64,000 nt of DNA from Amphiscolops sp. MND2022 (GCA_964187785.1 OZ076409.1:18538001-18602000), one strand, 5' to 3'; counted from the first letter of the stretch, positions 14,796 through 36,274 are shown. Translations and numbers: made by a program. The notes: generated by a model from the sequence alone, not told the origin.

Positions 14796-15761
14796 CCCAG
14801 GTTCACCAAACACACTAACCATGCTATGATCATAGTATGATCATACTATGATCATGGTCATTCCATGATCATGGGCTTGCCAAGATCTCATCATGGCGAC
14901 GATGATTCACAGTATGATCATAATATCACCATCATGTTTCATATCAGAAAAAATGTAGTGAGAATAGAACATAGTTCACAGAAATTGCTTGCCGAAATCC
15001 ATATGCTGTGTTTTTAGGGAGGGACGCAGCTCATGAGATATACAGCATCGCACTTGACGACACCCACGACGAGAACGTGGCCTCTCAAAACTGAAAAAGT
15101 ATAGACCAAAACAGCTTGAAATCAATGAAAACACTTCAGATCTGTATTTAGATGCACTAGAATCGATGAATTATGATTATAACAACACCATCATAACTAG
15201 ATTTTGGGTTGAACATTTACCGGAAATACCCGCAAAAACGATGAAAGTATACCTGAATTGAACCCAAACTCTGCGGAACAATAGGAATTATATCATTTCA
15301 AGAAAACCATTCAAATCGTTGTTTAGATACACAACACCCGATGAATTATGAACATGATAAATCCATAATATTTACTTCTTGGATTGAAAAAGTATCAAAA
15401 AGACCCCCGAAAACCAAAATCCTAACTATCTCAGCGGCTTCAGGAAACGCGGTGCCAAAAAGCGTCCTTAATGCTATCCAGGCCATTAAGGTAACCCATA
15501 TAACAGAACAGAAACAACGGGAAACAAAGAGAACAAGGATAAAATGGTTCATGCATGCGCTCCGATTTCCAATATTAACCGCTAGGTGACAATCGAAGCT
15601 TTGGAAAACTTCGAACGAGGTCAACATACCATGATCATAGTCATCGACATGCCGTTCATAATATGATCATATTATTATCATAGTATGACAATCATTTTCC
15701 ATCGTGACCATACTATGACATGGTATGATTCATCTTTTCCGAATATGTCGGTCAACCTGGG
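14796..15761. mobile_element. Non-autonomous TIR element (CCCAGG termini) flanked by TA
   Basis: TIR cccaggttcacc / ggtcaacctggg (11/12 match), TA on both sides, and subterminal catga/tatgat repeats. Confidence 0.8.
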
Positions 15762-17534
15762 TATGAAGATCTATAAAAAATCTAATTCCTAGTTCCAAAT
15801 TATCAGATCAATCTTCTACTTTTGAATTAACAATTAGATTTCTGCAACATTACTGTTGAACCCATAGTGTAATTCATTCACCGTGTTTTTATAACACCTA
15901 ACTTTTCCCTTACGATACATGGGTTGCAAAAGTGAAATTTTATCATCATAAGTAGTTTGTTTTAGTTGTAAAACAATCTCGAACCGTATTTTAGTTCTTG
16001 TGATTAGATGAAAGTCTCACTGCCATTGACTTCGGATTAATAGTTTTTTGGACTGAAGGTAATTCGCTAAGAGATGAACGCTTGAAAAACGTTATTGATT
16101 CTGGAAGTTTTTGGGATACAATTTGTAGTTCAGGATTCCAAAATCTTGTCATTCCAGGATATTAGAATGTTACAAGAAACTCAGATAACTAAGTTTTCTG
16201 GAGTTTTCTAGTTTTCCATGCTGCTTCCATGCATGTAAGGCAGATGTTCTACAGAAGAAGGGAAATTTCGCGAGTCTACTTGGAAAAAATTCGTGAGGAA
16301 AAAGTGCTTCAAAAGCTTCAAATAGTTGAATGAAAAGTGAAAACATTCCACTTCTTCATTGTCTTGATCATTTTGTAGCAGTAGCTCTACTGTTGTGTCG
16401 TGTGAACTCTATCAACTGCCCCTGTAGTTGCGTAGCCTGTGAGCTCCTCGAAGAAAGAAGTTTTAGTGTAATACTGTAAAAGGAACAAATCGAAAAAACC
16501 GATGTCAAAACTTTTAGATGCAACAGCCGCAAAAAAACGTTTTAACTTCTGCTGGTGGTTCAAGAAGTAGAAGATGCTATCCAAAATTACTAGCTTTCGA
16601 GCTGGTGTTAAAAACCTTGCCGTTTTTTGTAAAAGTATGAGGTCTCAAAGTAAAAAACAGTAAAATCTCGTCACCGCTACTCCAAAAGCAGATGGCCAAC
16701 AAGGATTCGTCCTTATTCTGTGAGAGCTGGTGACGTATCCACAGCACTGGAAGCAGCCCTGATCCTGGAGGAGGTCCTGTGATGCTTGCCGGGGACGACA
16801 AGCCAGAAGCCCGGAGAGTGGTGTAATGGCATCTTGTAATCAGACTATAATTTGACAATTTTTGAAAATTTCGTTCAAACCTGACGTAGCATCTTGAGCA
16901 TGTTTTTGACGAAGTGGTTGTTTAAAAACGTAAAAAACACGGTCAAAACAGCCGCCCCACGAGGAAGAGCGAGACGACCGAGAAAGCAGACAGTAGAAAA
17001 AGAGTTGAAACGTGCCACAACATGGTGTTTGCCCGCAGGATCCTGTACTTTACGTTGCCGAACCCAGAGCTCTGATGACAACCCAAAGAGTCTACCCGTG
17101 CCCATGGGGTTGTACTCAGCTCGAGCGCTGGTGCCACAGTGACACAAGATCCACTGCTTTCTCCGAACTGGACTCTAATATCTTAATTTGTGAGGTATTT
17201 GTATTTAGATTGTAGTATGCTCGAGGGCTATTGTCATTTATTTGTATTTTTTATTTACCCAGATTCCCACTAAGGAAATTCAGTTATCAACAACCAACAG
17301 TTTTTGAGCTATCTACACGGTGGTTGCAAACCCCAGTGCATTTCAGGTGATTCTTAGCAGTTACAGACTGTTATCAAGCCCGAGAGCATCATTTGAGGCG
17401 GTTCCCCTCCTCGGGACCGACAACCCGTAGGAGGTAAAATGAGCTGGTGCTATGGTGGTTTATCCCGGACCATGCCCATGGTACCAATTCCTTCACTCTA
17501 TTGTTGCGTCACAAACGCTTAGCGCTTGCCGTTA
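15541..17534 (+). repeat. Duplicated block, copy A
   Basis: Homologous in two pieces to 34255-36274. Confidence 0.9.
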
Positions 17535-18069
17535 CATAGAAACTCATTCTCAGGCGATCACAGAGGGATCAACTTTGGAAGCGTTCCTGCATAGTTTTTT
17601 AAAAGATTTGGCCACCGGTGTCCATTGCCAAGACAGTTTTTACTCTGTGGATGAAAAGAGAGCCCGAGTTTTTACTTTTTAACAACTTGGGAGTGGAACG
17701 GATTGGACACAGATAAACCCGAAAAAAATCCCGTTTTCAGGTGTGATAATGAAACTTTTGGGAAGAAAAACCAAAAATGCATGTCTAATGTGTGTTAGTC
17801 CATCAGCGAGTATGTTTTTGCAGGTAGTTGTGACCGTACTGCGTTGCTACGTTTGTTTAACCGGTTTTTACAGCTGTTTTTATCTTTTTGACCTATTCAA
17901 GTCAGTAGCCGATGGGTGGAAAAGCGTACTCCACCACAGCGACGAAGGGGTGAAATGGAATGTTGCGGTTCGTTGTTTCCCGTTTCTCGAGGAGACGATT
18001 TTTGGTGCACAACGAGTGCAAATGCTGACGGTGCTTGTGACATACGAAGGTCACAACCCAAAAAGAGCA

Positions 18070-18790
18070 ACAGTGTTGTTGTCAAACAAACTCATAAACA
18101 ACTGATTTAGCTACTGCTCTATTTATGTTTAGTAGATACGGTGTAAAAGATACATACTTGACCATTTTACATTAAAGATAGATACAATACAGCTGAAGAG
18201 ATACTACCGTACCTAACCTGTTTTAAAGCTTAGATTTAGCGATCTTAACATGGCGCAGTAAGCAAGATTCCCTTTTACTAAATTTGTTCACCTCTTTTAA
18301 CCTTCCTACCTTACCAACATACAACTACACTAGAATGGCCGTAGCAACCAAGATACAACTACCATATCTAGAAGATACCGGATTAGACGGAAAGAAAATA
18401 TATACACCGAAAGAATCTACCGAAAGACTTCGGCATTATTTAAAAAGAATCTATAACATCGACATCAAACCGATACTAACGGATGATACGGTACCGACCG
18501 GAGACCCGTGGAATACAAAAGAGCCAGATATCAGACAAGATTTTTTCTGGGGTGCCGGACCGTCAGCAATTGAAATCATCACAAAAGGCGAATTCAATAC
18601 GGACCCAGATACAATTACAACCGACAGCTTTGAATACAGCTATTCAAAGAGTATTATATGCCGAAAAGAAATACGTACCATAGCCGCGGGGATTTTTTCT
18701 GGGCCAAACAAGAAGAAAACGAGACACCAGAAGAACACTGGAAAAAGCTGATAACACTTGAAAAGAACTGCGAATTCAAAGATATTAAAA
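18070..18790 (+). mobile_element. gag: Gypsy-B: LTR end + PBS + 5' part of gag, truncated
   Basis: ...cttaaca|tggcgcagtaag at 18250/18251 (LTR end/PBS); gag MAVATKIQLPYLE...QDFFWGAGP...EETPEEHWKKLITLEKNCEF; LTR start uncertain. Confidence 0.75.
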
Positions 18791-20838
18791 ATATTATTAA
18801 ATTCAAAGATATTAATGGTTCAAACCGCGTGACTCTAGCTGGTCTGGATGTGGAGAAAGCGCGAAGGTACATCTCATTTGATTAGAAGTGTCGCTCAGAT
18901 GGGTCATGTTTCGCGAAAATTTGGGATTGCACTTTTTTATGGGGAATGGTTGGTTCAGGTCAGTGGCCCTATTTTGCAATGTAACGACACCCTATGGAAC
19001 ACGTTCAAGTTTTTCGAAAGGTGTTTTTGCAAAAATGGCAATTTTTCGTGTTTCTTGGTGTTTTCCTTGGTTGGAGCACGCGTGCTCCGTACGTCCAAAG
19101 TACTATCGCAAAAACTGATGCAAAAGTAGCCTCGAGCCCTGACAGAGTCGGCAAAACTAGTAGCAGCAGATGTTGCGACTCGTTGAGACAAAAAAATGTA
19201 AATTTTGTGGTGAAATTGTGCGAAAAGTGAAAAACAAGGTCGAAAAATCATCAAAACTACGGGTGTGATCAGTTATAGAAGCCCGAAAAACTGTTCTACT
19301 GTAGTTTCTCGAGGCAAACAAAACCCAACAAAACAACCCTTTTCGCAAGTTTGATTACTTCTTGGATCGTGGATAAGTAAAAACCTTGCAATTTTGGCCG
19401 TTTTTGACAACTGTAGAGTTCACTGACGTACAAACCCTTATTGAGCGGACCTTATCTGCCATAAGAGAATCTGCGCATTCTCATTTCCTGTTTGTATTGT
19501 AAAAACGACGCGTGGGAGGAAAATCGGCATGTGAAAACTCTGTTTCAGTGTTGAGAAAAGTTGAATAACGCACTGAAAATTACCATTTTTGACTAAAACC
19601 GGACTGCCTAACTATCATAGCTCTATCTTGGAAGTAGCTAGTTTTTCTTAACCACCACCAAATCAAACGGTTGTTCCGGAAACGTGGTGAGCCTAGCTCT
19701 AGCCAAAGCCGAGGAAAACTCTCTGACGTTTCGACTTCAGAAATAGGTAAAATAGCCGAAAAAAAAACAAAAACTGTAAGACCAATAGTGTCTGGTGGCT
19801 ATGACTAATTGAGGGCTAGTGGCAGTGCTGTTTTTAATTGGGCACCACGTTCGCCCTATTTTCACTGCCGTAACGTTCAACGTTGTGATCCTCTTGGCCA
19901 ATTCGTGGAAAAATTTCAAGTGAGACTGTATTTGGTAAGATCGTGTCTGTACCCAGTCCTGATACAAGGCAATCTCTCGAGCTTCCATTGGACCTCTGAA
20001 TCAGCTTTTCGGGTGCCCACAGGTAATGTCAAGCAAACTTGGTGCCGATTGGTACGGTATTAGTTGAGAAATTAACGATAATGTACTGAAAAAAGCGATT
20101 TTTCGATATTTTTTGGAAGTGCCTGTACATCTTAGCTGAAGTGTGGGAATAAATCATAGGCCACCAACGTAATTTGTGCTGTGCTGGTTGGTGCATTGTT
20201 AGCAAAAAAACCGAGCCGCTATCTCATACCGTTGCTTGAAAATTGTATGATAAGTGTGCAATTTAGCTCCTATTGATAAATAGGGGTACTGATATACAGA
20301 ACCGCACGTCTGTACCGAGGCGAAACGGTGTATAAGCCTCGGAGCCCAGAACGGTGCTCAATTTTGTGTATGTATCTACGTAGGTTCAGGGTCCTCTGAT
20401 CCTTTTTGAGCCAGATTGGGCTTTTGAGTGACGAATACGAGCCACGTGTGTTTCTTTTGTACTTTCCAAGAAATTTCAAAGTTCGTTGTTAACGTCTTGT
20501 GCTTGTCTCAGAGAAACTGTAGCAGCAAACTAAGCTAATTTTCTAGATTTGTGGGTTGGTAACAATTGCTTGAGTGAATTTGAACTTGATACGACCCGTA
20601 GAAACGATTTCGACCCATTTGAAACGTGCATAGCCTGTTTTTGACAAAAGTTCTCACCGGAATAACCACAGGTCGCGTAACCTCCGGAGAGTTTCATCTG
20701 CATCATACGCCGTTCTAAACTGTTCTAGGCATAACAAAAATCTGTGAACACTGATAAAAAGCGTGCTAGCCAATTGTTCCGTAGAGGCGGCAGCCGTGGT
20801 GCTAAATTAAACTTTTCAGTACTACAGGTAACGATCTC

Positions 20839-23060
20839 TTGTTTGGTAGATGTACGAAACAAAGTGTGAATTCGCAGAAAAATGTTATGGGCTGTGTTGC
20901 AGCTATACCGAAACTGCTCACTGCTAGCTTGGCTAGCGGCACTGAATTGATTGAACTCAACACTTCTGAAGCGACCGAGACCAGCAAAATCTTTGAGCTA
21001 AGCTCGGTACAACGTGAGAGTTCGGGCAGTAATGACGACCTCAATTTACAGGAGTGGCCATCTGTGAGATCGTTATTGACTGGTTCGCTTTTTTCAGAAG
21101 CAATGTCTGATCGAGTGACTACTGGCCAGCAACGAAAAGAGGAACATGACGCAATGGTGCCTCTTCGACACCGGTCGCCGGTCTCAGAGGAATTGATTTG
21201 AACTGAACCTTGTATTCAGGACACGCAATAATTAATCCTCTTTTTAATCCTCGCGACGGTCTTCGGCTCATCGGGCTGTGGAAGAAGCCGCGGCGGATAG
21301 AACCGCTATGCCGGATGCCGAAGCTGTGGTAAAGCGATCCTTAGCGCGGTTGGTTGATACTCGTACCGAGTGCAGTGAGCAACTTAAGTTAATTACGGCT
21401 GAGCTAGAGGCGGTGCAGTGTTCAGTAAAAGAGAGTTTACGAGCCAATGACCAACAACAAACTGTGTAGTCCGCGAAAGTGGACGCTATGGGGTATCGCT
21501 TGGAGAAATTGAAAGATTTATTCTTCCAGCGCGAAGTACGCATGGAGGTACAGATGGCTGAGGTTAACGCTCAGATACATGTGTTGGGTGCAATGGCCCG
21601 GGGAGAAAACCGAAGCCTGATACATCCGCTTTTGACTTAAAAAAAACATAAAAAACATCAGAAGACCAGTCCTAAGACGGTGCCTCATGACTATTTTCCC
21701 GAAGCCACTTCGTGTACCATCCCGCTCCAGACAACGCTGTTGCAGAACCGAACTTAGGACAAGGGGGTGAATCCCAACACTGTGACTTCTTCCACCCTGG
21801 AATTGACTGGCACCAAAACCACGGCTGGGTCACCTATGCTACTGCTCGTACACAGAGGACCAGGACCAATTCAATGTATTTGACTGCCTATGAAGGAGTG
21901 CCCGCGGGCAACCCTTGTGCTAGTAGTACGCGTAAACGAGACCAGTTGGTGGGGGACTTGTACATCCAAGTCATCAAGGGAAGCAGGGATAAGATGCTTG
22001 CTGGCAGTGAAGATGGTGAAGCCATCTCCCCTAAACAACTACGGTTCACCAGAGCGATCTTCAAAGCCATTCAGAAGGCGTTAGCTCCTCTATTGGCTGG
22101 TCGTGATCCGTCAGAGGCCAGGCCCAGTGCTTATCGCGGATCTAAAGAGGGCTTCATTGACGAGTGGATATTGATCATGCGTCGATACTTGCAACGCACG
22201 CAGGCCAAGGCAACTCTAGACGGCAAAGCGTGGAGCATTATTGGTCGTCTGGAAGGCGAAGCCCGCAACTTCATTATCAACAAGGCAGAGTACGAACGGG
22301 ACTCACCTGAGAAAGTGTTCGAGTTGTTGGCCAGTCGGTTTGGTACGGAAGGTAACCGCATACAAGTGCGGCAAGCCTTCGCGTCTCGTTACCAGTTGGA
22401 AAAGGTAGACTGGATGCTGTGTTTGCATGCTTTGCAAGGGCTGCAAAGCCAAGGAGTCCTCAATGAGCCCATCACTACGAAGCGTTATGAAATCCCGCAG
22501 CGCTTTATCGAAGGTGTTCGAGACCCAGCTTTGCGACGTGGACTGTCTATCACCTATGCGTCCGAAACCAAGGTGACTGACCCACCCACTGTGGAATCTT
22601 TGAGGTTTATCACGCGACAATTGCAGCGAAATGGCCCAAAGCAGTCACAGGAATATAATCCCAGGCATGCAATGAGATCCAGGCCACGGTCTTCGTGCCA
22701 TTGCCACCCAACATACTGGTGCTTCCGCAAGGAGTGCTGCCACCACCTCCACCTAGCAATGCACCCGTGAATATAGCGGCTGCACCACATGCCGTACGTG
22801 CACGGATGGGTGAATGTTTCAACTGCTGACAAACAGGCCACGTTGGACGTGAGTGTCCAAACCATGATCAAGTCCTGAAATCTGCAATACAGCTTGAATC
22901 CAAACAGGCAGTAGAAACCACCATCGAGAATGCTGATGAGTGTATCGCGAAGAACTGCTTCGTGGTACGTTTTGGTGTGAACTGCGGCATGGTCGACCAT
23001 GTTGCGTCGCAGTGCGTAGAAAGCCCTGTGAGCGATGATTTTGCTTACAGTCGCTGGGCT
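20839..23060 (+). pseudogene. gag: Gypsy-C gag (coiled-coil N-terminus, capsid-like domain, two CCHC knuckles)
   Basis: AYRGSKEGFIDEWILIMRRYL...LEGEARNFI...LLASRFG...RFIEGVRDP; knuckles CFNC*QTGHVGREC (~22815) and VNCGMVDHVASQC (~22980). Confidence 0.85.
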
Positions 23061-23379
23061 GAAACGGAAGCAGCTGGTGTCGCTGCTCAAACGGTGCCCC
23101 TAGAGGCTGACCGTATGCTGATGCTGCACCCGGCAGAGCAGCCTGGTTTCAACACGCCTCTTACGGTCACTTGTGGCGCAAAGCAGGTGCAGACAAGTTT
23201 GGAACCAAAATCCTTCGACCCTCAAGGTCGCACCCAAAATCCATTTATCTAATGCTGGCCGCCGAGCAGCAATGTCGCCCTTGATTAACCCTGGCGAAAC
23301 CGTGGACGGTACCAAAAGACTCAAATCCCACAAGCTAAAAAGTGCTATGCTCGGGTGATTCTGGTACACTGACCACGTA

Positions 23380-23810
23380 TTCTCCTGTGCCTATCTGTGC
23401 TACCTTGGACGGAGTAGACGTTCGAGGAATGTGTGGTAGCGGACGTATTCCTGCCTGGAGTCTGCTTGGGTCTACAGGAGTTACGATGTTACAATATCAG
23501 CCGCCAAAAACCAACTGCCGAAGCCCGAATTGACCAGCGTGCGTCGCTCGTGGTGTCCTTTGTGATGCCGCATGCAGCACCTATCTCAATGCCTGGTTTG
23601 GTTGACATGGTGTCGGGGGGAGGGGGTGGTAGAGCAATACAATCAAAACCTTCGTCATAGCGCAGCGTGTGCGCATCCAATCAGGAGGTTACGGGCTCGA
23701 AGCCAACTTTTTGGTAGTGGATGAAGCAATGGGTGTTGAAGACTTCCTTTTGGGTCGCAACTTCCTGAGGGCATATCAAGTCCTCGTCGACTTTACTTCT
23801 GTGGAGATAG
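23380..23810 (+). pseudogene. Gypsy-C protease remnant
   Basis: ANFLVVDEAMGVEDFLLGRNFL (LLGRDFL box); active site degenerate. Confidence 0.7.
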
Positions 23811-24559
23811 TGGTACGAACACCGGTGGCATCACACTCATACTCAGGTTGGTGGCCCTGCTTTAGCGATCTCAATTGCTTTGGACCAACACTTAGTGTTG
23901 CAACCGTTTGAACGTACGGTGGTAAAATCTAAAATGGTCACCGACGACCTTGAACCACTAATTTTCCAAAATATAGCGCTAATTGCATCCATTGCGGAGG
24001 CGTCGCTACAAAATAATGTTTTTTACAGGACTGCGTTGCCGCTGTCAGTGAGGCAGGCCACCTCTTTATGAGTGTAATAAACCGAACCAGCAACACTCAA
24101 CGCGTGCGCGTGGAGGCGCACATATGGGAACCGTGGCGCCTGTGGTGCTCGTGTATCGCGCCATTCCACAACAACTGTCTGGTGCTGCTTGTAAAAAACT
24201 CGAGGTCGATAATGACCGTATTGATTATTCTGTTTGTAAAGTGAACGAAGCTTTGAATTTGAGTACTGAGTTTCAATTCACCTCTTTGTCCTCAATCGAG
24301 TTTTTACTCTCTACTGATCCATGTTAGGAAGGAAAAGGAAACGCACAGATTCCGAGCTAATGGATCCCATACCAGGGCCTGAGTCCCAGCTCCAGGAAGT
24401 CCAGGACCTGTGCGGCTCTAAAGCAAGTGCTTCTTTAGAAAAAATTTTGACTGAATTTGATGTTTTGTTCATGAAGCATAAGGCGGACGTTGCCAATGTG
24501 GACGTTGGACTATCGCCAAACACTCCGTTGAGATAAAGCCTGGTGCTATACCACATAAG

Positions 24560-25500
24560 GAGGGTGCCAGAATAATGTCTCCCGAAAAGGCAGATCGTGC
24601 CAATCAGGAGGAGCGCAGTCTGCTAGCTCTGGGGTTGATTCAACCGTCCCTATCACCTTTGGCAAGTGACATCGTGTTGGTTAAGAAAAAGAACGGGGAG
24701 TTACGGTTCTGCTGTGACTTCCAACCGTTAAATGATATCATCGTCAAAGACGCATACCCTTTGACCAGGATCGACCAGAGCTTTGCTCGGAGAGGCAAAG
24801 CCAAGGTCTACAGGAGCATTTATCTAGCGTGGGCTTTCTGGCAAAGTCCAGTGAGGAAAATCGATCGTCAAGATATTACTTCTAGCCTGTAAACTAGGTC
24901 TCTTTGAGTGGAGACGCATGCTGTTTGGCATGTGCAATGCCTCTGCCACGTTCCAGAGGGCGGCAGCGCGAGCGCTACAAAAAATCGTGAATTGTAAAGG
25001 AATCAAGGTCATGGCCTACCTTGATGACATCGTGACTGCTACAGAAATTGTAGAGGGTCACGTGGTCTGCTTTTGCGAGGTCGTTGAACGCTTGCGTGAG
25101 GCTGGCTTCAAGATGCGCGAAGCCAAGTGTGACTTCAAAAAAATCTGAAATCAAGTAGTTAGGTCGAAAGTTTTCTGCGGAGGGCGTGAAGCTTGGTCAC
25201 AAGGCAGTCGCAAAACTACGTGACTGAGATATTCCTCGCAACAAGACTGAAAAGCAATGCTTTCTTGGCTTCGCCAACTACTACCGCGAGGTCATTCCTT
25301 AGCATGCCAAACTGGTAGTACCTCTGCATGCCATCACGGGAATGAAAGCCACCTTCGCGTGGGGGTCTGAACAACAACGGACCTTCAACGAGATCAAAAA
25401 GGCTCTGATCGAGGCGCAGCCCGACCCCGCAGGCGAGTTTGTACTGGACACCGATGCCAGTGCTGTAGCCATCTCTGGAAACTTACACCAGTGGCTGGGC
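24560..25500 (+). pseudogene. pol: Gypsy-C reverse transcriptase and start of RNase H
   Basis: IVLVKKKNGELRFCCDFQPLN...KDAYPL, FGMCNASATFQRA, AYLDDIV, KCDF, FLGFANYYR, FVLDTDASAVAISG. Confidence 0.93.
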
Positions 25501-25935
25501 CTTCCAGCGGAGTGACGCCTGTGACCAAAGTTCACTCTGAGGGTGGACAATCAAGCTCTCTCGTGGCTAAAGACGTACTCCATCGTTTGGCCGATGGTTT
25601 GTCCAAACGAACCAAGGACTATCACTGGCGGGAAAAACAGCTCGCGAAGCTGCCATCCGTAGCCGAACGATGGAATTTTATGTCACAAGATGACTTTGAA
25701 CAATTGCCAAATGCGCTGTTGTTTGACGTGCAGGGTCGGGTAATACCCAATCACACAAACACACCCGCGCATCTGCAGCACGTGCAACGTGCTGCTCCTA
25801 GTTTGGTGCAGCGCATTGTTCGCCGTACTCAGCGAACACAAAGGCGGCAATGGCAGAAAGAGGCGTTACATACTCCTCTGCCCGTGCCTCCCCCACCTAT
25901 CTTGCATGCTCACGAGGATTTTCACCCAGACTATC

Positions 25936-27147
25936 TATTACGATACACATCCCGGTAAAATGGATTTAGGACACGCAGCGTAATCTGTGTAATCCGTAAA
26001 ATGGTCATTCAGCGTAAGTTAGTCAAGACGGTCTATGCTTCAACGGTGTAGCTGTGTCAACGCGCGTGATGGAAATTAGTGTAAACTAGTCAAAGCACGT
26101 AGTTAGTGAAAAGTGGAAGTTAGTCCAAAGATACTCGTTTTCGTAATTCAGTCAAAACTTTGACTAACTTCCACTTTTTGCAAATTGCAGATCGCTATAC
26201 TTGCAACAAGTGGAAGTTAGTCAACGTTTTGACTAACTTACACCATGTTTATATGCATTCAAAACTCAGTGTTCATTTTAATTCCAATTCATACCACAGC
26301 ATCGTAAACCAGTCAAAGTAAACAATGATTCAATAAAGAATTAGTTATCAATACTAAGTTCTACCGTGCATAGTACGTATAAACTGCATTCAGTGCAAGT
26401 TGCGCACGTGTACATGTGTATTTAATCCGCGCATTTACGTGCAAATAAACTGCCTCGTAGCTACTAATTAGTACAATTATAACAATTGATTGATCTGTGA
26501 CCGGGTTTCCTATTTTAAGAATATACAATTTCAAAGCAGCCCTCATCAATAGTTGCTCAACTAATCTTAATTTTGGTCCCTGTCGTGAGCAAAGCACGGT
26601 CACCGGAATTTTTGGTTAACTTGTTATTTTGGTCTGCGTATTTTGAGCCAGGGTTTTGACAAGGATCTATTTTGATCCCTGTCGTGAGCAACATCAAACA
26701 AATGAATGTAGGTCTCAATGAAGGGGCGATTGCTTCATTGAACTTGGTAATTTTGGTCCCTGTCGTGAGCACTTCCGTTAGTAATCAGATTGACTGTTTA
26801 TGCGATTTGATACTGTGTATGCGAATCAAGCAGTGTAGTTATGAGTCGGCGTGTGTAGCTCACCAGAACAACCCGTAAATACCAGAACTATGTGTAAATA
26901 TGAGATGCACAGTGTAGTTAGTCAAATTCCGTAAAAACGCTGTTTGGTGTAAACTAGTCGATTACTGTACTATCCAATGGTGTAAACTAGTCGGAGTACG
27001 AAGCTGTGTCAACTAGTGTAGCGTCCTATCAATGTGTGTAATATGCGACAAGTGTAAAACTTCCAAAAAAAATATTCGCGCTCTGATTGGACGAAAATCG
27101 AACTAGCAGGATCCTGCTAGTTCGTTACCGGGATGTGTATCGTAATG
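25936..27147 (+). mobile_element. CACTA/EnSpm-like non-autonomous TIR element, inserted in Gypsy-C pol
   Basis: 23-bp TIR (t/c)attacgatacacatcccggtaa; 2-bp TC duplication whose removal restores the frame D-Y-L-E-D-W; many subterminal AGTCAA/TTGACT motifs; 26-bp palindrome at 27099-27124. Confidence 0.88.
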
Positions 27148-27299
27148 TCTTGAAGACTGGATTGACGTGACGGAAGAAGCCAGTCGCGACTATATACTGT
27201 CAACACATGCTACTAATGTGCCTTCGCGTGCTATTTACGCTCTGGTTGAGGCCCTTGGGTGTCAAACAAGCTATCTTGGCCCTTCGCCACGTGGACACT

Positions 27300-28210
27300 G
27301 AATTGCATGAACGCGCCAACACAGTACACGGCGTCAAAGACTTAGTGATACCCCAGTACCGCGATGTTCAGAGTGGGTACTTTAATGAGCTGTTCCAGTA
27401 TGACCATATGAAAATTTGCCCCTTCGACAATAACATTACCGGTATTCTAGTGATCATTGTTCATTTCTCAAAATAAGCTGAGGCTGTGTCTTACAGCTAT
27501 AATGAATATAACGCAACCACCACATCTCGCTTGCCTTCTACCGAAGTGGTTTGCCCGACATGGCGCGCCTACTCGAATGCAGTCTGATAACGCTCCTTAC
27601 CTGACCGCTGAGGTCTCCGACGAATTCATGAAGGCTTCACAGTTCACTAAAGTCACTTCAACCGCATGTCATCCTCGAATTCAGAGGCTGGTTAAGCGAC
27701 CAAAGCGCAGATTGTTCACGACGAATGCGTGATTGGGGTCAGCATTTGGAGGAAGTATTGGGTGCCAAAGCTCTACTTGGTTTGCCACCACAGGCTTCTT
27801 GCCTTACATGTTGACTTGTGGTCCTGAAAAAGCTATCCCAGTTACGTACCTTGATCCTGAGTTTGCTGCAAAATCTTTTGAAACGCATGAAGCTTACGTG
27901 GATCATGCGTTGGCTCGGCAACAATTCACGACTTGGTGAGTGGAAATGATCACATAGAACTGATGGGCCAAAAGCATAAGTATGACCGTGCCATACGGGC
28001 CAAAGAGTACCAAACTGGTGTACTTGTCTGGGTTGTTTGTCTGTATGTCCCACAGAAAGGCTCACCCAAGCTGATGCGCGGATGGCGTGATCCGTATCGG
28101 GTGGTCCAAGTGCTGGACGATGGACGTGTGTACATTATAAACACAGGTCGTAAAGTTCATTTCGAACGTCCTAAATTGCATCAGAGCGGACCTACTTGGA
28201 TACTGGGGAA
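27300..28210 (+). pseudogene. pol: Gypsy-C integrase core and C-terminal part
   Basis: LFQYDHMKICP, WFARHGAPTRMQSDNAP, TGFLPYMLTCG, KLMRGWRDPYRVV...VHFERPK. Confidence 0.88.
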
Positions 28211-28914
28211 ATTGTAGCCGTGATGGACCCACAGTCCGATTGCTCAGTTGAGGCAATTAACGATGATTTGTCTCAGTCTTCTTATCGATCTGAACAACTG
28301 CTTTCAGAGGCTTCGGATGTGCCTTTGCCTTTGCGCAGACGCCATTGGATGGATACCGGACTCCGCACTAAACTTCGTGCAGTTGATCTTGCATGCACTA
28401 CCAACAGTTCGACTACTCTTTTTCTGGCACGGATGATGAGTTATCCGAAGCCATGTAACCGATTCCTACCCACCAACAGCCATCGGATAAACCTGATGTG
28501 CTTGCTGAACAAAATCTTGAGCCTGAGGCTCAGGACTTTGTCTCAGATGCATCTTTCATCGAGTATATTCCTAAGTTGTTTTCTGACCATGATCCTGCGC
28601 GCTCTCTGTCTCCACAACTGTCGGCATCAGACCATGCTCAACCGCAAACAGGCCGCACGAGGCTAATTGTTCTGTTGATTTTTTGCCCGTCCATCCTCAC
28701 CATCGTTAAATGGTAGTCTACGGTCTACTCTTACCCTCCCGACCGCTCCTTCTTTCGAGAGGGGGAGGGAGAGGCCACGCAAGAAATCACGATTTCCTCG
28801 AAAGAAAAGGCCGCCGAGCAAAACAAAGTAGCCCCGGCTGCAAGAACGGAGGTCCAGACCGGGTCACAAGATCGCTACCAGTTGCGAAAGAATCGCCAGC
28901 CTCGACATAAATGT

Positions 28915-30180
28915 GGAACATCTATGCTGCACAATTGTGTTTGTATCTTGGCGGTAAATGAGAACCGAAGGAACAACCAGTTGATGAATGGATTCAGTGT
29001 ATCATGGTACGAGATGAGAAGGCTTTTTCAGAAGTTGAACGGACAGAAAATTATTCCGTTGAGGTGATTCTTCAGCAAATTACAGGGGCAGGGGTCACAA
29101 AAGCACCATGCCCCCAGTTCAAAGAATGGACGAATGACGGCAGAGGCCTGGAGTGCACGTTGTTGGCTACCGTGATTCCTCCTGTTCTTCCTGGCATTGC
29201 ACTTGGCCTATTATATTTCGAGCCAGAGCCGGTGCAGATGGCACGATGCAACGTAACAACGGACCACCTGCTCGACCGATGTGGCGTGCAGGTTGAGCCG
29301 GCAGCATTTACAGCCCCGTATTGGTGGTTGCTGGTGACAGCACCTTCAGTAGATACACTGATAAGCCCGCAGCACTTGCTCGCATGTCGGGAAAGTTTCA
29401 GAACTTCCACTGGGAAGAAATATTTCTATTCTTCCAAATCATCGACTGGTATCGGGCAAAGTGAAATTCAGCGGGTGGCTAAAGCTGGTGTTATCTCATG
29501 TTTTGCGTTATCTGCGGATCCGTTTATTGGACGTGTGGACTCTCACCTTTGCGGAACCGCTGCCTTAAAAAGCAGTGTTGAGCTTTTTGGACACTTGGGT
29601 CCGGGCAAACGTTGATAACCAAGTGTTGCCGCGCTCCGTGTGGCAAAATCTGGCCACCAATGGAACGAAGCACTCCTTGATTAAGGCAGCCCCCAGGCAA
29701 TGAACCTGACCGGGAGATAGTGTATTCCGACGTATTACGACCCAACTTGGTCGAGTATATTCCCTACGACATGACCAATTTCTTACAGGCCGAGGGCGAC
29801 ATTGCATTGGTTTTTCCAGTCGACTTGGAAACAAACTCTACTGCGATGCGTTTTGTACTGCGCGAGTGTGGGAAAGAACAAAACCTTTCGACCCAAAACA
29901 GGGGAAATCCTAACGGTGACCCCAGCGATAACCAATAACCCCTCCCTAACCATTCACTTATTGATCGTGCCAGCTCATCAGCGTGCGCCGCTGATAGCTG
30001 ATGACCTCCTACTGACAGATGTGCACCAAGTATTCACTTCCCCATACTGGATCTCGAACAACCGGTGTATTCATTGGTCAATCTCTACGGGATCATGTTG
30101 GACCTACTTGCAGGGGCCAATATTAACGTGATTCTGCATAATTCTGTGTACGTGTTGATACTAGGTATCGAAATGGGAAA
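28915..30180 (+). pseudogene. Gypsy-C accessory ORF 1: unknown N-terminal part + C-terminal TARG1/OARD1-like macrodomain (frameshifted)
   Basis: Stitched frames VEYIPYDM...DIALVFPVDLETNSTAMRFVLRECG...PKTGEILTV...LTIHLLIVP...IHFPILDLEQPVYSLVNLYGIMLDLLAGANINVILH follow the TARG1 motif spacing (by-eye comparison with recalled sequence). Confidence 0.55.
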
Positions 30181-30499
30181 GTAAATCAGCAGTTCTCACA
30201 CACACTCCTTAGCCTAATTCTTCACTTTAAGGCTTTAAACCCCTGTTAGTTAATAGTAGCTGAGTTAGCCCTCTTCATCTACTGGCACCCTTCCTCGCTA
30301 ACGCTTTATACGTAATAGTGCCCTATGCACTTCCTAGAAGTTGATGCCACTTAATGTAGTATCCACCACATGTATATGGTCGAGCCCCCTTACGGAGTTC
30401 TTGTTTTAGGTTTAATCGTGTTGTTCTTTAACTGAATCTTGGGTGTAATGGGTACATCTTGTTGGACCTATGCTAACATGCTAGCACTGTACGTCTATT

Positions 30500-31990
30500 C
30501 GAAGTTGCTCGAGCACAGTGAATCAACCAATCGAAATACTTAGGGGAAACGCTACTCGACAGAGTATCTCCTGCCGCTGTTGCTGGCATGACTGCACTGC
30601 TTGCACAGATTGAGGCACAACAGACACTCCGCAGCTCGGCAGGCTCTATTGTAGCTGACGAATCGGGACACAATTGCACCATGACATGTTGTAACATCAT
30701 CCATCAATTTCAAGATGACCGGTCAACAACCAAGGATGGGCGAGCAGCCATACGGTATTTGAGGAAGGTTTGCTCTACGCGAAGGTGAGACCTGGGAAAC
30801 CATGGCACGTATGCCTGCGACCTGTAATTGCTGGCCATCATTCCCAAGAATCGGGTTCAACGGACCCGGTACTGTGTGATGATAGATTCAACCATCCCTT
30901 GCGATCTAAACTATGACAACGTCATACCTGATGTGATGGTGGTGACCATGCCACTGTCGCGCCCACCCGGAATGGCTGAAGTGATGGTATCAATGTTTGC
31001 CCCCGAGCTCGAGGGCTCCCAAAATGAACCACCTCCAAAGACGTTTGTCTTTGCCAATCTGACTGACCACTTGGCTTGTGAAGTTCTCCACCAGAATTTG
31101 CAGCAATTGCTGTGCGTCATGGGTTTCAATGAGGCGCTTGGGATGAAGTTGCGCGGTTGCTTCACCAAGCAGCAATTTCCATGGAAGGGACCGCTGAGAC
31201 ACTGCGCACCCAGCTCAGCACCCCTGCGATACTTGTCTCCCCGCCCGGCATGATGTATTGGGTCGTGCGTTGCAACAGTTTGTTCACATGTTGACCGAGG
31301 TGTGTTCGGCCCGGCGAGTGGCTTTCTTCAACTGTACGCCCAACATGCGCGTTGGGCAGGAAGACTTTCGTCCTGCCGCGCAATTGGCGCACGCCTACCT
31401 GTCTGCCATTTCACAATTGTTGCAGTCCACAGAGCTGAGTTGAAACGCTCAGTTGACGTGGTATGGTGCCATATATTATGACCAAGGTATGCGGATGAGA
31501 TGTCTAACGTTCGGTCAGGAAGGTCACCGCCTTCTCCTTTACGCAACTTTGGCCGAGCGTGAGCACATGTGCAGATACAACTGGCTGATGCGCGAAAGCC
31601 GCACGACCACCGTGAAGGCAGACTTGGCCGTTGTGTGGGATCCAGTTGCTCAATGCCCAGGGAACTGTGAAGTGGAACGAACCGTACCTCAAATTGGCTT
31701 CGCTGAAGATACTGAGATTATCAATTTGCCACTGGGTCTACGATACATCGTGGCCCGTGAAGCCGTTATCCTCGGACAGGAGGTGCAAGCTTGCGAGCGC
31801 ACCTATGCAGAGTGGTAACATTACCTATGGCAGCTCGCGCGCTGTCGGTGTCCTTCCCAGCTTTAATGACAAGTTTCGGCCTTGGCTGGAATTTGGACGT
31901 CATCACTGATGAATTCAAACGGAACAGGGCCAGGTGAAACAACTGACTGAAACATTGGAAGCTTTGACCGTCAATGGGTTGCTAGCTTGC
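30500..31990 (+). pseudogene. Gypsy-C accessory ORF 2: SGNH/GDSL-esterase-like fold (frameshifted)
   Basis: CVMIDST / VVTMP / TFVFANLTDHL / LRTQLSTPAILVSPP / LQQFVHMLTEVC...VAFFN / EDFRP...YLSAISQLL follow the SGNH block order. Confidence 0.5.
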
Positions 31991-32259
31991 TAGCAGTGCA
32001 AAAGAGTGGCCTAATTGTTTTGGGTGAGGTATTGTTCCTACAGAAAAAACAGCATTATTCAGAAACCTTGTTCAAACTGCGCTCATCTCTGCAGCACTGG
32101 AAACTTGCTGAACCAGTAGACCAACCCATGACGCCGGAACAATCTTAGGAGCACGTTGCGGACTAGAAGAAGAAAACGAGGACGAAGACGACTCGTTGGT
32201 GGACAACTGAGAAGATTGTCCCAGAAGAACAAGTGTCTGATTCTTGGAGTCTCTGATTT

Positions 32260-32370
32260 TGTGTCTCTGGGAGATTGGGCTACTGTGTCTCTGGGCGATT
32301 GGGCTATTGTGTCTCTGGGAGATTGGACTCTAGTGACTCTGGGAGTTCGAGCTATTGTGACTTTGAGAAC
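32260..32370 (+). repeat. 24-bp tandem repeat (tgtgtctctgggagattgggctac), ~4.5 units
   Basis: Units start at 32260, 32284, 32308, 32332 and 32356, with decreasing identity. Confidence 0.9.
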
Positions 32371-32388
32371 TAAATTCAATGTGAAGAG

Positions 32389-33008
32389 ATGGCAGAACCT
32401 AAACGTTTCGATATCAACAAAATTAAAAAGTTCCTGAACAACTCGGCTGACAAAGCCCGTTGAGTTATTGGAATGCAGCTGTCGAGCACGGTAAAGCTGT
32501 CAAAGAAATTGATGAGAACCTGGCTAGCAATGTTGACGACAAGCAGGTAGCAGATATACTGTTAAGACGAACAGATGCCATAAACAGGAGAGATCGTCTC
32601 ATTAAGGCAGTCGAAAATGCATTCAAAGTCAAGTACCAACCGCAGTTACCCGAAATGTTCTCAGCCGTGAACAAAGCAATGCAGAGCCGATTGGTTGAGT
32701 TGCAGCAACAAAACTCTAGCGTTCGAAGTGTACAAATACTGATGTCAGCATTGCAAGATGAAGAACAGATACTAAACTACTTGGATCTTGACGAAAAGAA
32801 ACGTGCTATTGATGAAAGAATGGTTAGCAACAGAAATTGGCGGGATGATTCAATTGCAAATGGCAAAGACGCCAACAAAGAAGATTATGTTTCAGCATGT
32901 CAAGAATTGCTCCAGAAAAGGTCTGATATAAAAACAAAAGATGAAACTCTGCTGAAGTCAGGAGACGAGCCATTTTGCGAAGTCTTGAAGACGCTGAACA
33001 AAGAATAG
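32389..33008 (+). pseudogene. Coiled-coil-rich ORF of unknown function (one frameshift near 32460)
   Basis: MAEPKRFDINKIKKFLNNSADKAR joins 182-aa ORF 32460-33008, which is rich in E/K/Q/L. Confidence 0.5.
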
Positions 33009-34254
33009 CAGACGCTCGTGTAAACTCGGCAGCAGACAAATCCAGTAAAAATGGTACGTCACACGGACACACCGGCTAAGTTTTGAGGTCATTCGCCCAC
33101 TATTACCCCCTTCACCCCTCACATGTGTGGTAATCAAGGTCATTTGAGCCAAACTGTAAACATTGCTACTTACCCCTATGACCACGTTAAAAGGTAACTC
33201 TGTAGAAATTAGTGATTGTTACATTGTGCTAACATGCTTTCGAGCCCACTTAACCCACATTCAAGACCCACACTATGGTTTGTTTACTTAGCCAATAACT
33301 TCATATTATGCTCTAAATGTCATTTTGTTTATCCTTACTTATATTTGCTCATGTTTACTCTAGAATTGTAAACGATATGTATACCATTATTCAAAAGGGA
33401 TTTTCAAGACCGAGTAGCTATTGTAAAGTTGGGTCTCAGGACTGCGAGACTAATTATCTTTTCTCATCTTTTCAGCATTTCGCTAGAGTTAGAGCGAACA
33501 AGTAGCTACTCTCATAGTAGGAGAGCCGGAGCGCGTAAAGATACAGTGCGGGAAATTTGTGCTGGGTCACATCGGATCCATGTCAGTGTAAAGCGGGATC
33601 ACCACGAGATTCCACGGGTCACATTGGACCCACCAGTCAAAAGATACAATCCTTTAAAACAAGAAAACCAGGAAAACGGTCCACAGCACTAAGCAACGGA
33701 TCAGGGCGGCGTAAAGCTTGTCAAGCCTCAGCGCAGGATAAGGGCAAGCAACCGTTACATTTGGTGCCGCGTTGATTGAATCCATTGATGGTTTAACTAT
33801 CGACACAGACACAGAAATCTTGGTTTCGTCTCCTAGACGACGAGGCCCTGTGGGTGACAGTACTCCTGCCTCAGAGGTGCCTCCTCGCAGTCGACACAAG
33901 TCCGTTACACAGCGAAGGAATGTGCTGATCAAATGAGTGCAAGGATGCATCGAAAAATTGTCATGCTACAAAAGTGATTTTCGCCGAAACTTGTTGCCTT
34001 ATTCCTCGCGGTGCTTACCTAATCGATGCAATTTTTAGTTTATGTTACCTATGTAGCTTGTATTTATAGTACGCCGCGGGTGTATGGCCTTTGAGTGGGC
34101 CTGCCTCGCGTGTTTGAGTTACCTAATTCAACAACAGTTCAGAAGATAACCAAGTGAAAAGGATACCTTTTTGTTGCTCCTTAGCACTTCGCGCGGTGTT
34201 GGTAAAATTGAGTCTCTTTGTGAAAAGGCGAGAAAAGAATATTTATCCCAAACT

Positions 34255-36274
34255 GTAGCTCTAATGTTGTGTAGTGTGAACTCTATTAACTGCCCCTGTA
34301 GTTGCGTAGCCTGTCAGCTCCTCGAAAAAAGAAAATTTTGCGTACAAATTGTAAAAATGGAAAACCGAAAAAACTAACTTCAAGAGATCTTTTAGCTGGC
34401 AACAGCCTCAAAAAACGTTTCAACCTCAAGAAATGGCAGATGCTATCCAAAATTCCTAGCGGTTGAGCTGGTGCTAAACATTATCGTTTTTGGTAAAAGT
34501 ACGAGGTCTTGAAATAAAAAACAGAAAACTCCCCGACGGCGCTACTTCAAAACCAGATGGCCAACAAGGATTCGTCCTTGTTCTGTGACAGCTGGTGACG
34601 TATCCACAGCACTGGATACGTCACCTGTATAACGGCATCCTGGATAACGGCATCCTGGATAACGGCATCCTGGATAACGGCATCCTGGATAACGGCATCC
34701 TGGATAACGGCATCCTGGATAACGGCATCCTGGATAACGGCATCCTGAATAACGACATCCTGTAATCAGACTAAAATTTGACAATTTTTGAAACTTTCGT
34801 TCAAATCTGCCGTGGCATCTTGAGCATGTTTTTGACGAAGTACCTGTTTAAAAAGCAAACAAAACACGGTCAAAACAGCCGCCTCACGAGAAAAAACGAG
34901 ACGACTGAGAAATCAGACAGTCGGAAAAGTTGAAACGTGCCAAAACATGGTGTTTGCTCGCAGGATCCTGTATTTTACGTTGCCAAACCCAGAGTTCTGA
35001 TGACAACCCAAAGAGTCTACCCGTGCCCAGGGGTTTTTGCCCAGCTCGAGCGCTGGTGCCACAGTGACCCAAGATCCACTGCTTTCTCCGAACTGGACTC
35101 TAATATCTTAATTTGTGAGGTATTTGTATTTAGATTGTAGTATGCTCGAGGGCTATTGTCATTTATTTGTAGTTTTTATTTACCCAGATTCCCACTAAGG
35201 AAATTCAGTTATCAACAACCAACAGTTTTTATGAGCTATCTACACGGTGGTTGCAAACCCCAGTTCAACTCAGGTGATTCCAAGCAGTTACAGATTGTTA
35301 TCAGGCCAGAGAGCATCATTTGAGACGGTTCCCATCCTCGGGACCGACAACCCGTAGGAGGTAAAATATGCTGGTGTCATGGTGATTTTTCCCGGACCAT
35401 GCCCATGGTACCAATTCCTCCACTCTTGTTGCGTCACAAACGCTTAGCTCTTGCTGTTAAATGACAAAATGATTCATGGATGGGCGCCAATTACCAATAT
35501 TAACAGCTAGGTGATATTCGAAAATTTGGAGATTTTCGAACCCCTTCAACATACTATGATCAGTCACCGACATGCTATTCATAATATGACCATACTAATA
35601 TCGTAGTATGGCATTCATTATCCATCATGACCATACTATGAGATGGTATGATTCATCGTTTTCGAATATATCGGTCCACCTGGGTATGAAAATCTATGAA
35701 AGATCTAACTCTTAGTTCCAAAATATAAGATCAATCTTCTACTTTTGAATTAACAATTAGATTTCTGCAACATTACTGTTGAACACATAGTGTAATTCAT
35801 TCACCATGTTTTTATAACTCCTAACTTTTCCAATACGATACATGGGCTGCAAAAGTGAATTTTTATTATCAGGTGTAATATGTTTTAGGTATAAAACAAT
35901 CTCGAACCGTATTTTAGTTCTTGTCATTAGATGAACGTCTCACTGTCATTGATTTCGGTTTCATAGTTTTTTTGAACTGAAGGTAATTCGCTAAGAGATG
36001 AACGCTTGAAAAACGTTATTGATTCTGGAATTTGTTGGGATACAATCGAAATTTGTAGTTCAGGATTCCAAAATCTTGTCATTCCAGGAATGTTACAAGA
36101 AAATCAGATAACTAAGTTTTCTGGAGTTTTCTAGTTTTCCATGCTGCTTCCATGCATGCAAGGCAAATTTTCTACAAAACAAGGGAAATTTTGCGAGTCT
36201 ACTTGGAAAAACTTTGTAAGATTAAAATGCTGCTTCAAATAGTTAAATGAAAAGTGAAAACATTCCCACTCCTT
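34255..36274 (+). repeat. Duplicated block, copy B (circularly permuted relative to copy A)
   Basis: 34255-35459 matches 16381-17534; 35466-36274 matches 15541-16356. Confidence 0.88.
34629..34763 (+). repeat. 15-bp minisatellite (ataacggcatcctgg) x9
   Basis: Seven perfect units plus two variant terminal units; preceded by a 13-bp inverted repeat at 34594-34625. Confidence 0.97.

Follow-up and report, generated by a model that had tools for sequence, protein, structure and literature searches.

The 64,000-nucleotide stretch analyzed here, called the window throughout (positions 18538001 to 18602000 of C1, OZ076409.1, in the host genome of Amphiscolops sp. MND2022), contains a broken Gypsy-type copy, and this copy is a decayed member of an 18.9-kb Gypsy-type long terminal repeat (LTR) retrotransposon family. 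An initial annotation of positions 28915 to 33010, made from the sequence alone, had placed three accessory open reading frames (ORFs) after the integrase: a macrodomain-like, an SGNH-like, and a coiled-coil frame. We arrive at a different reading, to which we give a probability of roughly 0.7: a giant Gypsy element that duplicates 3 bp of its target, whose gag-pol frame (ORF1) carries a macro tail, whose accessory frame (ORF2) is likely spliced to give a Gag-protease-ORF2 protein, and whose apparent third frame comes from a BEL/Pao element. The parts of the window copy are listed below.

16381..16821, + strand: piece resembling the 3' untranslated region (UTR), ending in the family polypurine tract (PPT), with a PPT motif as in intact copies; 81% identical to 34255-34616; sits before the left LTR (local rearrangement)
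16822..17536, + strand: left LTR, TG...CA, 715 bp; 91% identical over 730 nucleotides (nt) to the right LTR
17552..17569, + strand: decayed tRNA-Arg(TCG) primer binding site, 15 nt past the LTR end; intact copies match the tRNA-Arg(TCG) 3' end over 18 nt
21037..30184, + strand: broken ORF1, gag-protease-reverse transcriptase (RT)-RNase H (RH)-integrase-tail; from tblastn of P0005/P0004 and Pfam of intact ORF1
23844..23852, + strand: position of the conserved putative phase-0 splice donor, just past the protease; weakened in the window copy
29169..29537, + strand: first macro-like unit of the pol tail; weak fold call, strand/helix order as in the second unit
29744..30155, + strand: second macro unit, predicted TARG1/DarG/Poa1p-type fold without the catalytic loop; from Foldseek and structural superposition
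30185..30465, + strand: ORF1-ORF2 spacer; in relatives it ends in a putative branch point, pyrimidine tract, and acceptor, the last not intact in the window copy
30466..32158, + strand: what is left of the 1430-aa ORF2 after loss of residues about 112-482 and about 969-1330
30858..31455, + strand: SGNH-like domain of ORF2, which retains the Ser and lacks the His of the DxxH block
32159..33765, + strand: nested BEL/Pao fragment with 5' UTR bearing a 24-nt tandem repeat, gag start, and partial BEL LTR; permuted, no target duplication
33765..33903, + strand: C-terminal end of ORF2, resumed past the BEL piece; matches the end of a relative's ORF2 at E = 1.2e-6
34747..35461, + strand: right LTR; a stretch from its own start is amplified in tandem before it in 15-nt units (34624-34762)

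Intact relatives and their insertion sites

Intact relatives at six loci of the same genome measure 18.9 kb, with LTRs of about 720 bp (713-731 bp) that are 99.4-100% identical and lie about 18.2 kb apart. Gag-pol is a single ORF1 of 3193 aa and ORF2 has 1430 aa, both unbroken in one of the six; protein searches found open frames of 3193 and about 1430-1439 aa at many genomic places. Pfam domains on intact ORF1 run in the order CCHC-protease-RT-RH-integrase, and the best solved-structure match of the RT is Ty3-G pol (E = 6e-95), with caulimovirus at 2e-42 and retroviruses at 7e-33. An intact copy has the CX2CX4HX4C knuckle CFHCGQNGHFAREC and a GPF/Y-like WRGPH motif, and TG...CA LTRs, a tRNA primer site, and a PPT are all present in intact copies. 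Two runs of frozen synonymous sites in ORF1 of intact copies (L105) are likely central polypurine tracts: codons 2673-2685, a purine run that also encodes an AT-hook-like KRGRGRP, and codons 2767-2775, a near copy of the 3' PPT that is missing in the window copy.

The captured domains travel with the element. Integrase upstream and a family LTR downstream of ORF2 were found in 19/19 sampled loci (every sixth rank of 126 ORF2 matches, themselves the best-scoring 126 of 3111 candidates), and the same loci have the first macro unit in 19/19 and the second in 18/19. The arrangement that the initial annotation suggested checking, accessory ORFs always between integrase and 3' LTR, holds in these loci for the macro tail and ORF2 and fails for the third frame, which is BEL. 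It had also raised the prospect of intact relatives in which an LTR directly follows the integrase; in this family the macro tail and ORF2 intervene, and a sister family has the macro tail and no ORF2. The ratio of nonsynonymous to synonymous substitutions (dN/dS) between subfamilies, proposed at the outset as a check, is 0.02-0.13 for the macro units, 0.03-0.15 for the folded ORF2 parts, 0.17-0.24 for the disordered arm, and 0.01 for RT, with copies broken within a domain excluded (leaving 6-21 of 25 for each domain), many dS values saturated, and within-subfamily pairs, which have few changes, reaching 1.4-2.0. The macro tail and ORF2 are thus under purifying selection.

The family inserts with 3-bp target duplications. 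All 30/30 young LTRs have the perfect inverted-repeat ends TGTAAC...GTTACA, and 12/14 LTR pairs, read at filled sites of this one genome, are flanked by an exact 3-bp duplication and 0/14 by one of 4, 5, or 6 bp. The two remaining pairs comprise one with a single mismatch and one whose triplet follows an 18-nt aberrant end (10 nt of spacer). Shuffled LTR partners gave a mean of 1.0 and a maximum of 7 matches at 3 bp. Solo LTRs agree: of 30 loci sampled from the LTR subfamily to which the window copy belongs, 16 are solo LTRs that could be read at both ends, and 12 of these 16 have a 3-bp duplication (two of the 12 share flanks). The sister family has 3 bp in 5/5 pairs (one of 6 loci is without a 5' LTR), and control Gypsy families of the same genome gave 4 bp in 3/3 and 5 bp in 2/2 readable cases (of 5 loci). 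No LTR pair was found in the 17 metagenome loci examined of 80. If the LTR ends had been misplaced, the true duplication could be 4 or 5 bp, and it is true that only filled sites were read and that the base before the left triplet is A, like the last LTR base, in 6/12 pairs. That base is not A in the other 6/12, however, and a T follows the right triplet in 1/12; the LTR ends form perfect inverted repeats, and the same way of reading yields 4 and 5 bp in the control families. We give such an artefact almost no credence.

The primer site is likewise displaced. It matches the 3' end of the genomic tRNA-Arg(TCG) over 18 nt and lies 15-16 nt from the LTR in 17/18 copies and 25 nt in one (the site was not found in 7/25); in control Gypsy families the offset is 1 nt. 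By the standard scheme of priming, the 15-16 nt that separate the LTR from the primer site would be copied onto the cDNA end and then trimmed before insertion. In one aberrant copy (L147), 10 nt of the spacer remain beyond the 3' LTR. Genes for tRNA-Arg form a tandem array from C9:57537790 with a spacing of about 173 bp, with 256 pattern matches genome-wide.

The window's own LTR pair has no target duplication and, since a PPT precedes the left LTR, may derive from a local duplication. The element is flanked by an 820-bp stretch (A) that occurs in full only at window positions 15535-16356 and 35460-36274 (87% alike), giving the order A - 3'UTR - LTR ... 3'UTR - LTR - A. ORF1 of the window copy carries deletions and, at about 25935-27150 inside pol, a 1.2-kb AT-rich insertion with short inverted repeats; a further insertion at 18035-18812 is a gag-like fragment in the 5' UTR.

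The frames downstream of the integrase

Decayed coding sequence does continue on the same strand after the integrase, and no LTR lies between 28915 and 33010, as the initial annotation had it. The frame at 28947-30184, however, does not stand alone as an ORF: it corresponds to residues 1304-1722 of P0004, which form the tail of the 3193-aa gag-pol frame of intact copies. In a model of this tail built from 82 sequences, with a mean predicted local distance difference test (pLDDT) score of 69, the last 145 residues, macro unit 2, matched TARG1 (Foldseek E = 2.9e-8) and superposed on 4j5s with Z = 16.9 (root mean square deviation [rmsd] 2.2, 136 residues aligned), followed by DarG and Poa1p. The tail profile searched against solved structures returned TARG1 chains only (E = 0.11-0.15). 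Where TARG1 has its G-C-G-L-D loop, unit 2 reads D-P-E-R-P (Pro in 45/51 rows), and the TARG1 Lys position is Arg in 57/59 rows; we take the glycine loop, its Asp, and this Lys to be the catalytic residues of TARG1. The pol tail is predicted, then, to end in a TARG1/DarG-type macro fold without the catalytic loop. Unit 1 repeats the strand and helix order of unit 2, with tandem-macro and LAP N-domain rows among its structure matches, and the tail's macro domains are probably in tandem. A protein atlas search gave phage clusters for unit 2, one of them with Macro in 22% of its members, and no usable match for unit 1. Pfam found nothing in the window fragments, ORF2, or the ORF1 tail, and single-sequence searches of solved structures found nothing usable.

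ORF2 was modelled over 920 aa with a mean pLDDT of 63, rising to about 90 over much of 170-320 and 460-590. Residues 135-330 of this model align with SGNH-type proteins at middling scores, from Z = 8.2 and 8.1 at the top (rmsd 3.8-3.9) down to 5.1, and GDSL or SGNH is named in 8/50 titles of the structural matches, most of the others presumably being esterases of SGNH fold. The Oskar OSK domain (5a4a) aligned with Z = 7.1 (rmsd 5.6, 166 residues). Foldseek found no match to the model at E<=0.001 in the PDB or a viral library. The first 385 residues of ORF2 are rich in S, P, T, and Q; its helical middle and its C-terminal part have a pLDDT below 50 over much of their length. A designed PPR protein, the sole match of the ORF2 profile to solved structures, was judged a chance hit. 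Structural matches lend support to the macro-like fold first suggested and, at those middling scores, to a possible SGNH-like fold, both as model-based assignments. The Block I Ser of ORF2 is kept in 36/42 rows, and Asn (42/45), Asp (41/45), and His (41/45) are also conserved, while the Block V D-x-x-H reads D-L-R-P, with Pro at the His position in 43/52 rows.

The wider clade bears on what these domains do. An RT-RH tree of 24 rows, midpoint-rooted, with unnamed rows and no named Gypsy clade references and with three loci dropped for stops or a short match, groups the window family, its sister, P0378, P0383, P0411, and several metagenome elements at 97/99 support. The sister family (L211-L228, same genome) is 73-74% identical in RT-RH and 15.1 kb long, with a primer offset of 16 nt, 3-bp duplications, and a 3116-aa ORF1 bearing the same tail, and is without ORF2. 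The domains of P0383 and P0411 match the host genome at only 22-47%, so the clade spans other hosts. Its members often have a macro tail plus a downstream ORF of 1340-1900 aa. In metagenome relatives (L278, L281, L282, L284, L292, L304, L316) the gag and pol frames are separate, a canonical macro domain often ends pol, and the third ORF, of that same 1340-1900 aa, has SGNH-like motifs, a helical domain, and a Cys-rich stretch. Homology of these distant ORFs to ORF2 is clear for L316 alone (E = 3e-26); the distant ORF3s gave no alignment to the ORF2 SGNH profile (probability 0.2%) and a weak one to the helical part (P = 0.002). Some distant members keep all four SGNH blocks, and the canonical macro loop is kept in P0411, L278, L281, and L282, with an intermediate tandem form in P0378. 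Judged by these motifs, the clade shows a graded series of macro and SGNH domains, from intact to dead.

Other Gypsy families of the host genome also carry canonical macro and GDSL domains, so such capture is recurrent and not itself new. Near-canonical TARG1-like domains occur in L236, L239, L243, and L250-L254 at three other positions (after the protease, in a gag-protease-macro frame of ~834 aa; between protease and RT; and between RNase H and integrase), with at least 150 matches, and in a further family (L229-L232) the integrase is followed by a fused GDSL domain that retains all four blocks. The macro-bearing Gypsy of L250-L251 (8237-15051 of the reverse-complemented pair) has an unusual gene order, in that pol is preceded by a 503-aa frame and followed by a 436-aa gag-like frame, all on one strand.

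In the window family, we think it probable that both captured domains are non-catalytic binding modules. Both lack canonical catalytic residues, so that interference with host ADP-ribosylation, as the initial annotation envisaged, is unlikely to proceed by hydrolysis here; distant relatives keep the residues. Active enzymes, with the macro tail removing ADP-ribose marks of host defence and ORF2 acting as an esterase with a rearranged Ser/His site, would accord with the conserved Ser, Asn, Asp, and His of ORF2 and with the canonical macro loop and complete SGNH blocks of distant clade members. The prolines in the macro loop and at the His position of the last SGNH block speak against activity, and we consider it quite unlikely.

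The third frame comes from a BEL/Pao gag fragment lodged in ORF2 and is unrelated to the Gypsy element. The coiled-coil frame, annotated at 32451-33008 as a Gypsy accessory, is a gag start (32389-33062) that in other copies runs for 686-708 aa into DUF1759 (Pfam E = 3e-18 and 6e-18 in two BEL relatives). Such relatives have the order LTR, TTTGGT primer site, UTR with 24-nt tandem repeat, gag; in the window a piece of BEL LTR (33054-33759) comes after the gag piece, i.e., the order is permuted. Four Gypsy relatives continue uninterrupted over the insertion site, where the BEL piece stands in place of about 12 nt; its joints show short matches and it has no target duplication, and the BEL frame was absent from 31/31 Gypsy loci checked. 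The similar GC and similar decay first ascribed to the whole region do not hold across the joint: GC in 1-kb windows is 0.40-0.43 over 32001-33500 versus 0.47-0.53 over 28001-32000, and a DNA search with 28900-33100 found copies of 28900-31990, the Gypsy part, at 66-75% identity and of 32160-33062, within the BEL piece, at 85-89% (40 scored of 2143 candidates for the latter). Tandem 1137-bp BEL units (LTR end, UTR, and gag start) at L021 and L022 are a possible kind of source for the permuted piece. All three frames do lie on one strand between integrase and right LTR in the window, the arrangement behind the proposal of a single cassette of the Gypsy lineage, yet frame 1 belongs to ORF1, and frame 3 is BEL gag, missing from the Gypsy loci checked, with relatives continuous over its site. 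That proposal is refuted. What survives of it is an LTR lineage that has captured a macro-like and an SGNH-like domain, placed between integrase and 3' LTR, and that has one accessory ORF rather than three.

Expression and possible roles of ORF2

ORF2 likely reaches translation through a phase-0 splice that joins a donor behind the protease, after ORF1 residue 1198, to an acceptor where ORF2 begins, a prediction from patterns of site conservation in which we have fairly good confidence. On the acceptor side, 21/22 relatives have a branch point, a pyrimidine tract, and an AG at 6, 12, or 15 nt ahead of the ORF2 ATG, with the frame open in 21/21. The initial annotation had also raised the possibility of spliced RNA; the conserved splice-site signs accord with that, with the acceptor elsewhere, since its candidate at 30398-30409 is not conserved and the conserved position is 30464-30465 (not intact in the window copy). 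On the donor side, every ORF1 position was scored across copies with a generic donor matrix, and one phase-0 site just after the protease ranked 1st of 9354 ORF1 positions. Its 9-mer is the same in 19/23 copies, and both of its four-fold sites are frozen in 15/16 distant copies, against a mean of 0.37 and with 6% of sites above 0.9. Such a splice would remove RT, RNase H, integrase, and the macro tail and give a Gag-protease-ORF2 protein. A single gag-pol frame needs surplus Gag, which a splice removing pol would provide; the product would thereby supply extra Gag and load ORF2 into particles at Gag-like amounts.

ORF2 might instead be made alone from its first ATG, through a splice from a 5'-UTR donor, leader trans-splicing, or an internal promoter, in the manner of env genes. 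A conserved ATG opens ORF2 itself, the 5' UTR holds a further conserved donor-like site that is the same in 4/4 full copies, and the acceptor-like sites of distant relatives stand at spacings that are not multiples of three. Against this, the acceptor-to-ATG spacing of the family keeps the frame open in all 21 matches, several subfamilies have an out-of-frame ATG just upstream of the ORF2 ATG, and the best donor is a phase-0 site within ORF1 with frozen synonymous positions. We therefore regard separate expression as unlikely and the in-frame splice to Gag-protease as the better account.

Several points nevertheless weigh against our overall reading. The splice is predicted from site conservation, and with only three acceptor-to-ATG spacings the frame argument amounts to about two independent indels. 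The 5'-UTR donor-like site and the distant acceptor-like sites, which are not frame-locked, count here too, and the sister family retains a donor-like 9-mer yet lacks ORF2, making ORF2 dispensable. As to the domains, the SGNH match is middling and without Foldseek backing, macro unit 1 is weakly supported as a macro fold (profile-profile P = 0.002, probability 14%), and the conserved Ser plus N-x-x-D-H of ORF2 could form an unusual active site. The linkage loci, drawn from the best 126 of 3111, favor well-kept copies and under-sample lone fragments, and the duplication counts come from filled sites.

As for function, the SGNH-like domain with its long S/P/T/Q-rich arm would bind RNA and scaffold particle assembly, by analogy with the dead SGNH fold of Oskar, and the macro tail, preceded by the AT-hook-like motif, would tether integrase to chromatin. 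We put forward both roles tentatively, as the likeliest of those considered: the scaffold is an attractive possibility rather than the expected outcome, and the tether stands on a similar footing. It has been proposed for the GDSL ORF3s of bdelloid elements and for the esterase ORF1p of some LINEs that they bind or cross membranes (PMC5408684), and ORF2 could be such an envelope substitute: it lies after pol, has an SGNH-like fold, and contains one hydrophobic stretch (Kyte-Doolittle 2.28 at residues 1020-1038). Since a hydropathy scan found no hydrophobic leader at its N terminus, fusion behind Gag-protease would hold it in the cytoplasm, and the sister family spreads without ORF2, we judge this improbable. 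Joined into one picture, the proposals would describe an unrecognized giant Gypsy clade in which an integrase of 3-bp stagger trims a 15-16-nt cDNA extension, an ancestral TARG1/DarG-type enzyme and an SGNH esterase became binding modules, a spliced Gag-protease-ORF2 protein brings an Oskar-like RNA scaffold into particles, and the macro tail guides integrase on chromatin; as a whole this is speculative, and we would not bet on all of it.

Comparison with known systems

New here are the 3-bp duplications in a TG...CA Gypsy-type lineage, the displaced primer site, and the predicted Gag-protease-ORF2 splice. Our search of the literature on macro domains in Gypsy elements and on 3-bp LTR duplications, which extended to neither Repbase Reports, subscription journals, nor the Troyka supplements, turned up no account of this lineage. 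The duplications point to differences in how the integrase cuts its target and processes the ends. A duplication of 4-6 bp is what structure-based LTR finders usually require, so that families with 3 bp may be under-annotated even when, as here, they are abundant and recently active. The graded intact-to-dead series makes testable a long-open question, the role of captured enzyme folds in retrotransposons, and the predicted splice offers one exact junction to look for.

With Ty3/Gypsy elements (Metaviridae) the window family shares TG...CA LTRs, a tRNA primer site, a PPT, the CX2CX4HX4C knuckle, the protease-RT-RH-integrase order, a GPF/Y-like motif, and an RT closest to that of Ty3. It differs from ordinary members in its 3-bp rather than 4-6-bp duplications, its primer site 15-16 nt off the LTR, its 18.9-kb length, the macro tail on pol, and a large non-env ORF2 likely fused to Gag-protease by splicing. 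Because the usual duplication size fails, we file it as a Gypsy-type variant and not as an ordinary member. Duplications of 3 bp have been described as the mark of Troyka elements, with 4-6 bp in other LTR elements (Kojima 2025, PMC12440569). A Gypsy-type lineage that has TG...CA ends and duplicates 3 bp breaks this rule, although it was restated as recently as 2025. The 3-bp duplication is the likeness to Troyka; the Troyka traits of CG...CG ends, a CX2CX8-10HX4C knuckle, lack of GPF/Y, LTRs of 100-400 bp, and an internal region of <=7.7 kb (PMC12440569) are not found here. Identity with Troyka was rejected on the TGTAAC...GTTACA ends in 30/30, the CX2CX4HX4C knuckle, and the presence of the GPF/Y-like motif. 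The nested fragment resembles BEL/Pao elements in its gag start, with DUF1759 downstream in relatives, and departs from them in that the window holds just a permuted 1.6-kb fragment.

Other components have counterparts elsewhere. Drosophila copia obtains extra Gag by splicing out pol, and copia and plant Ty1/Copia elements resemble the window family in that gag and pol share one frame and splice sites lie close to the protease; the spliced RNA of those elements encodes Gag alone, whereas that of the window family would read in frame into 1430 further residues, and no such conserved splicing was found in Arabidopsis Gypsy elements (PMC5580714). Macro domains occur in fish epsilon-like endogenous retroviruses (PMC4977317, citing Basta 2009). 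The predicted fold of tail unit 2 is shared with TARG1/OARD1, DarG, and Poa1p, and carriage by a retroelement with the fish viruses; the macro domain of the window family is unlike all of these in being fused to the integrase C terminus, probably in tandem, with the catalytic loop replaced. The bdelloid Vesta LTR elements likewise have a GDSL/SGNH-fold ORF3 downstream of pol, of about 1.3 kb and with catalytic residues intact, unlike the 4.3-kb, multidomain ORF2 without the His (PMC5408684). Finally, the RNA-binding OSK domain of Oskar is an SGNH fold without catalytic residues (PMC5785220), and the SGNH-like domain of ORF2 appears to resemble it in this lack, a likeness seen in fold rather than in sequence.

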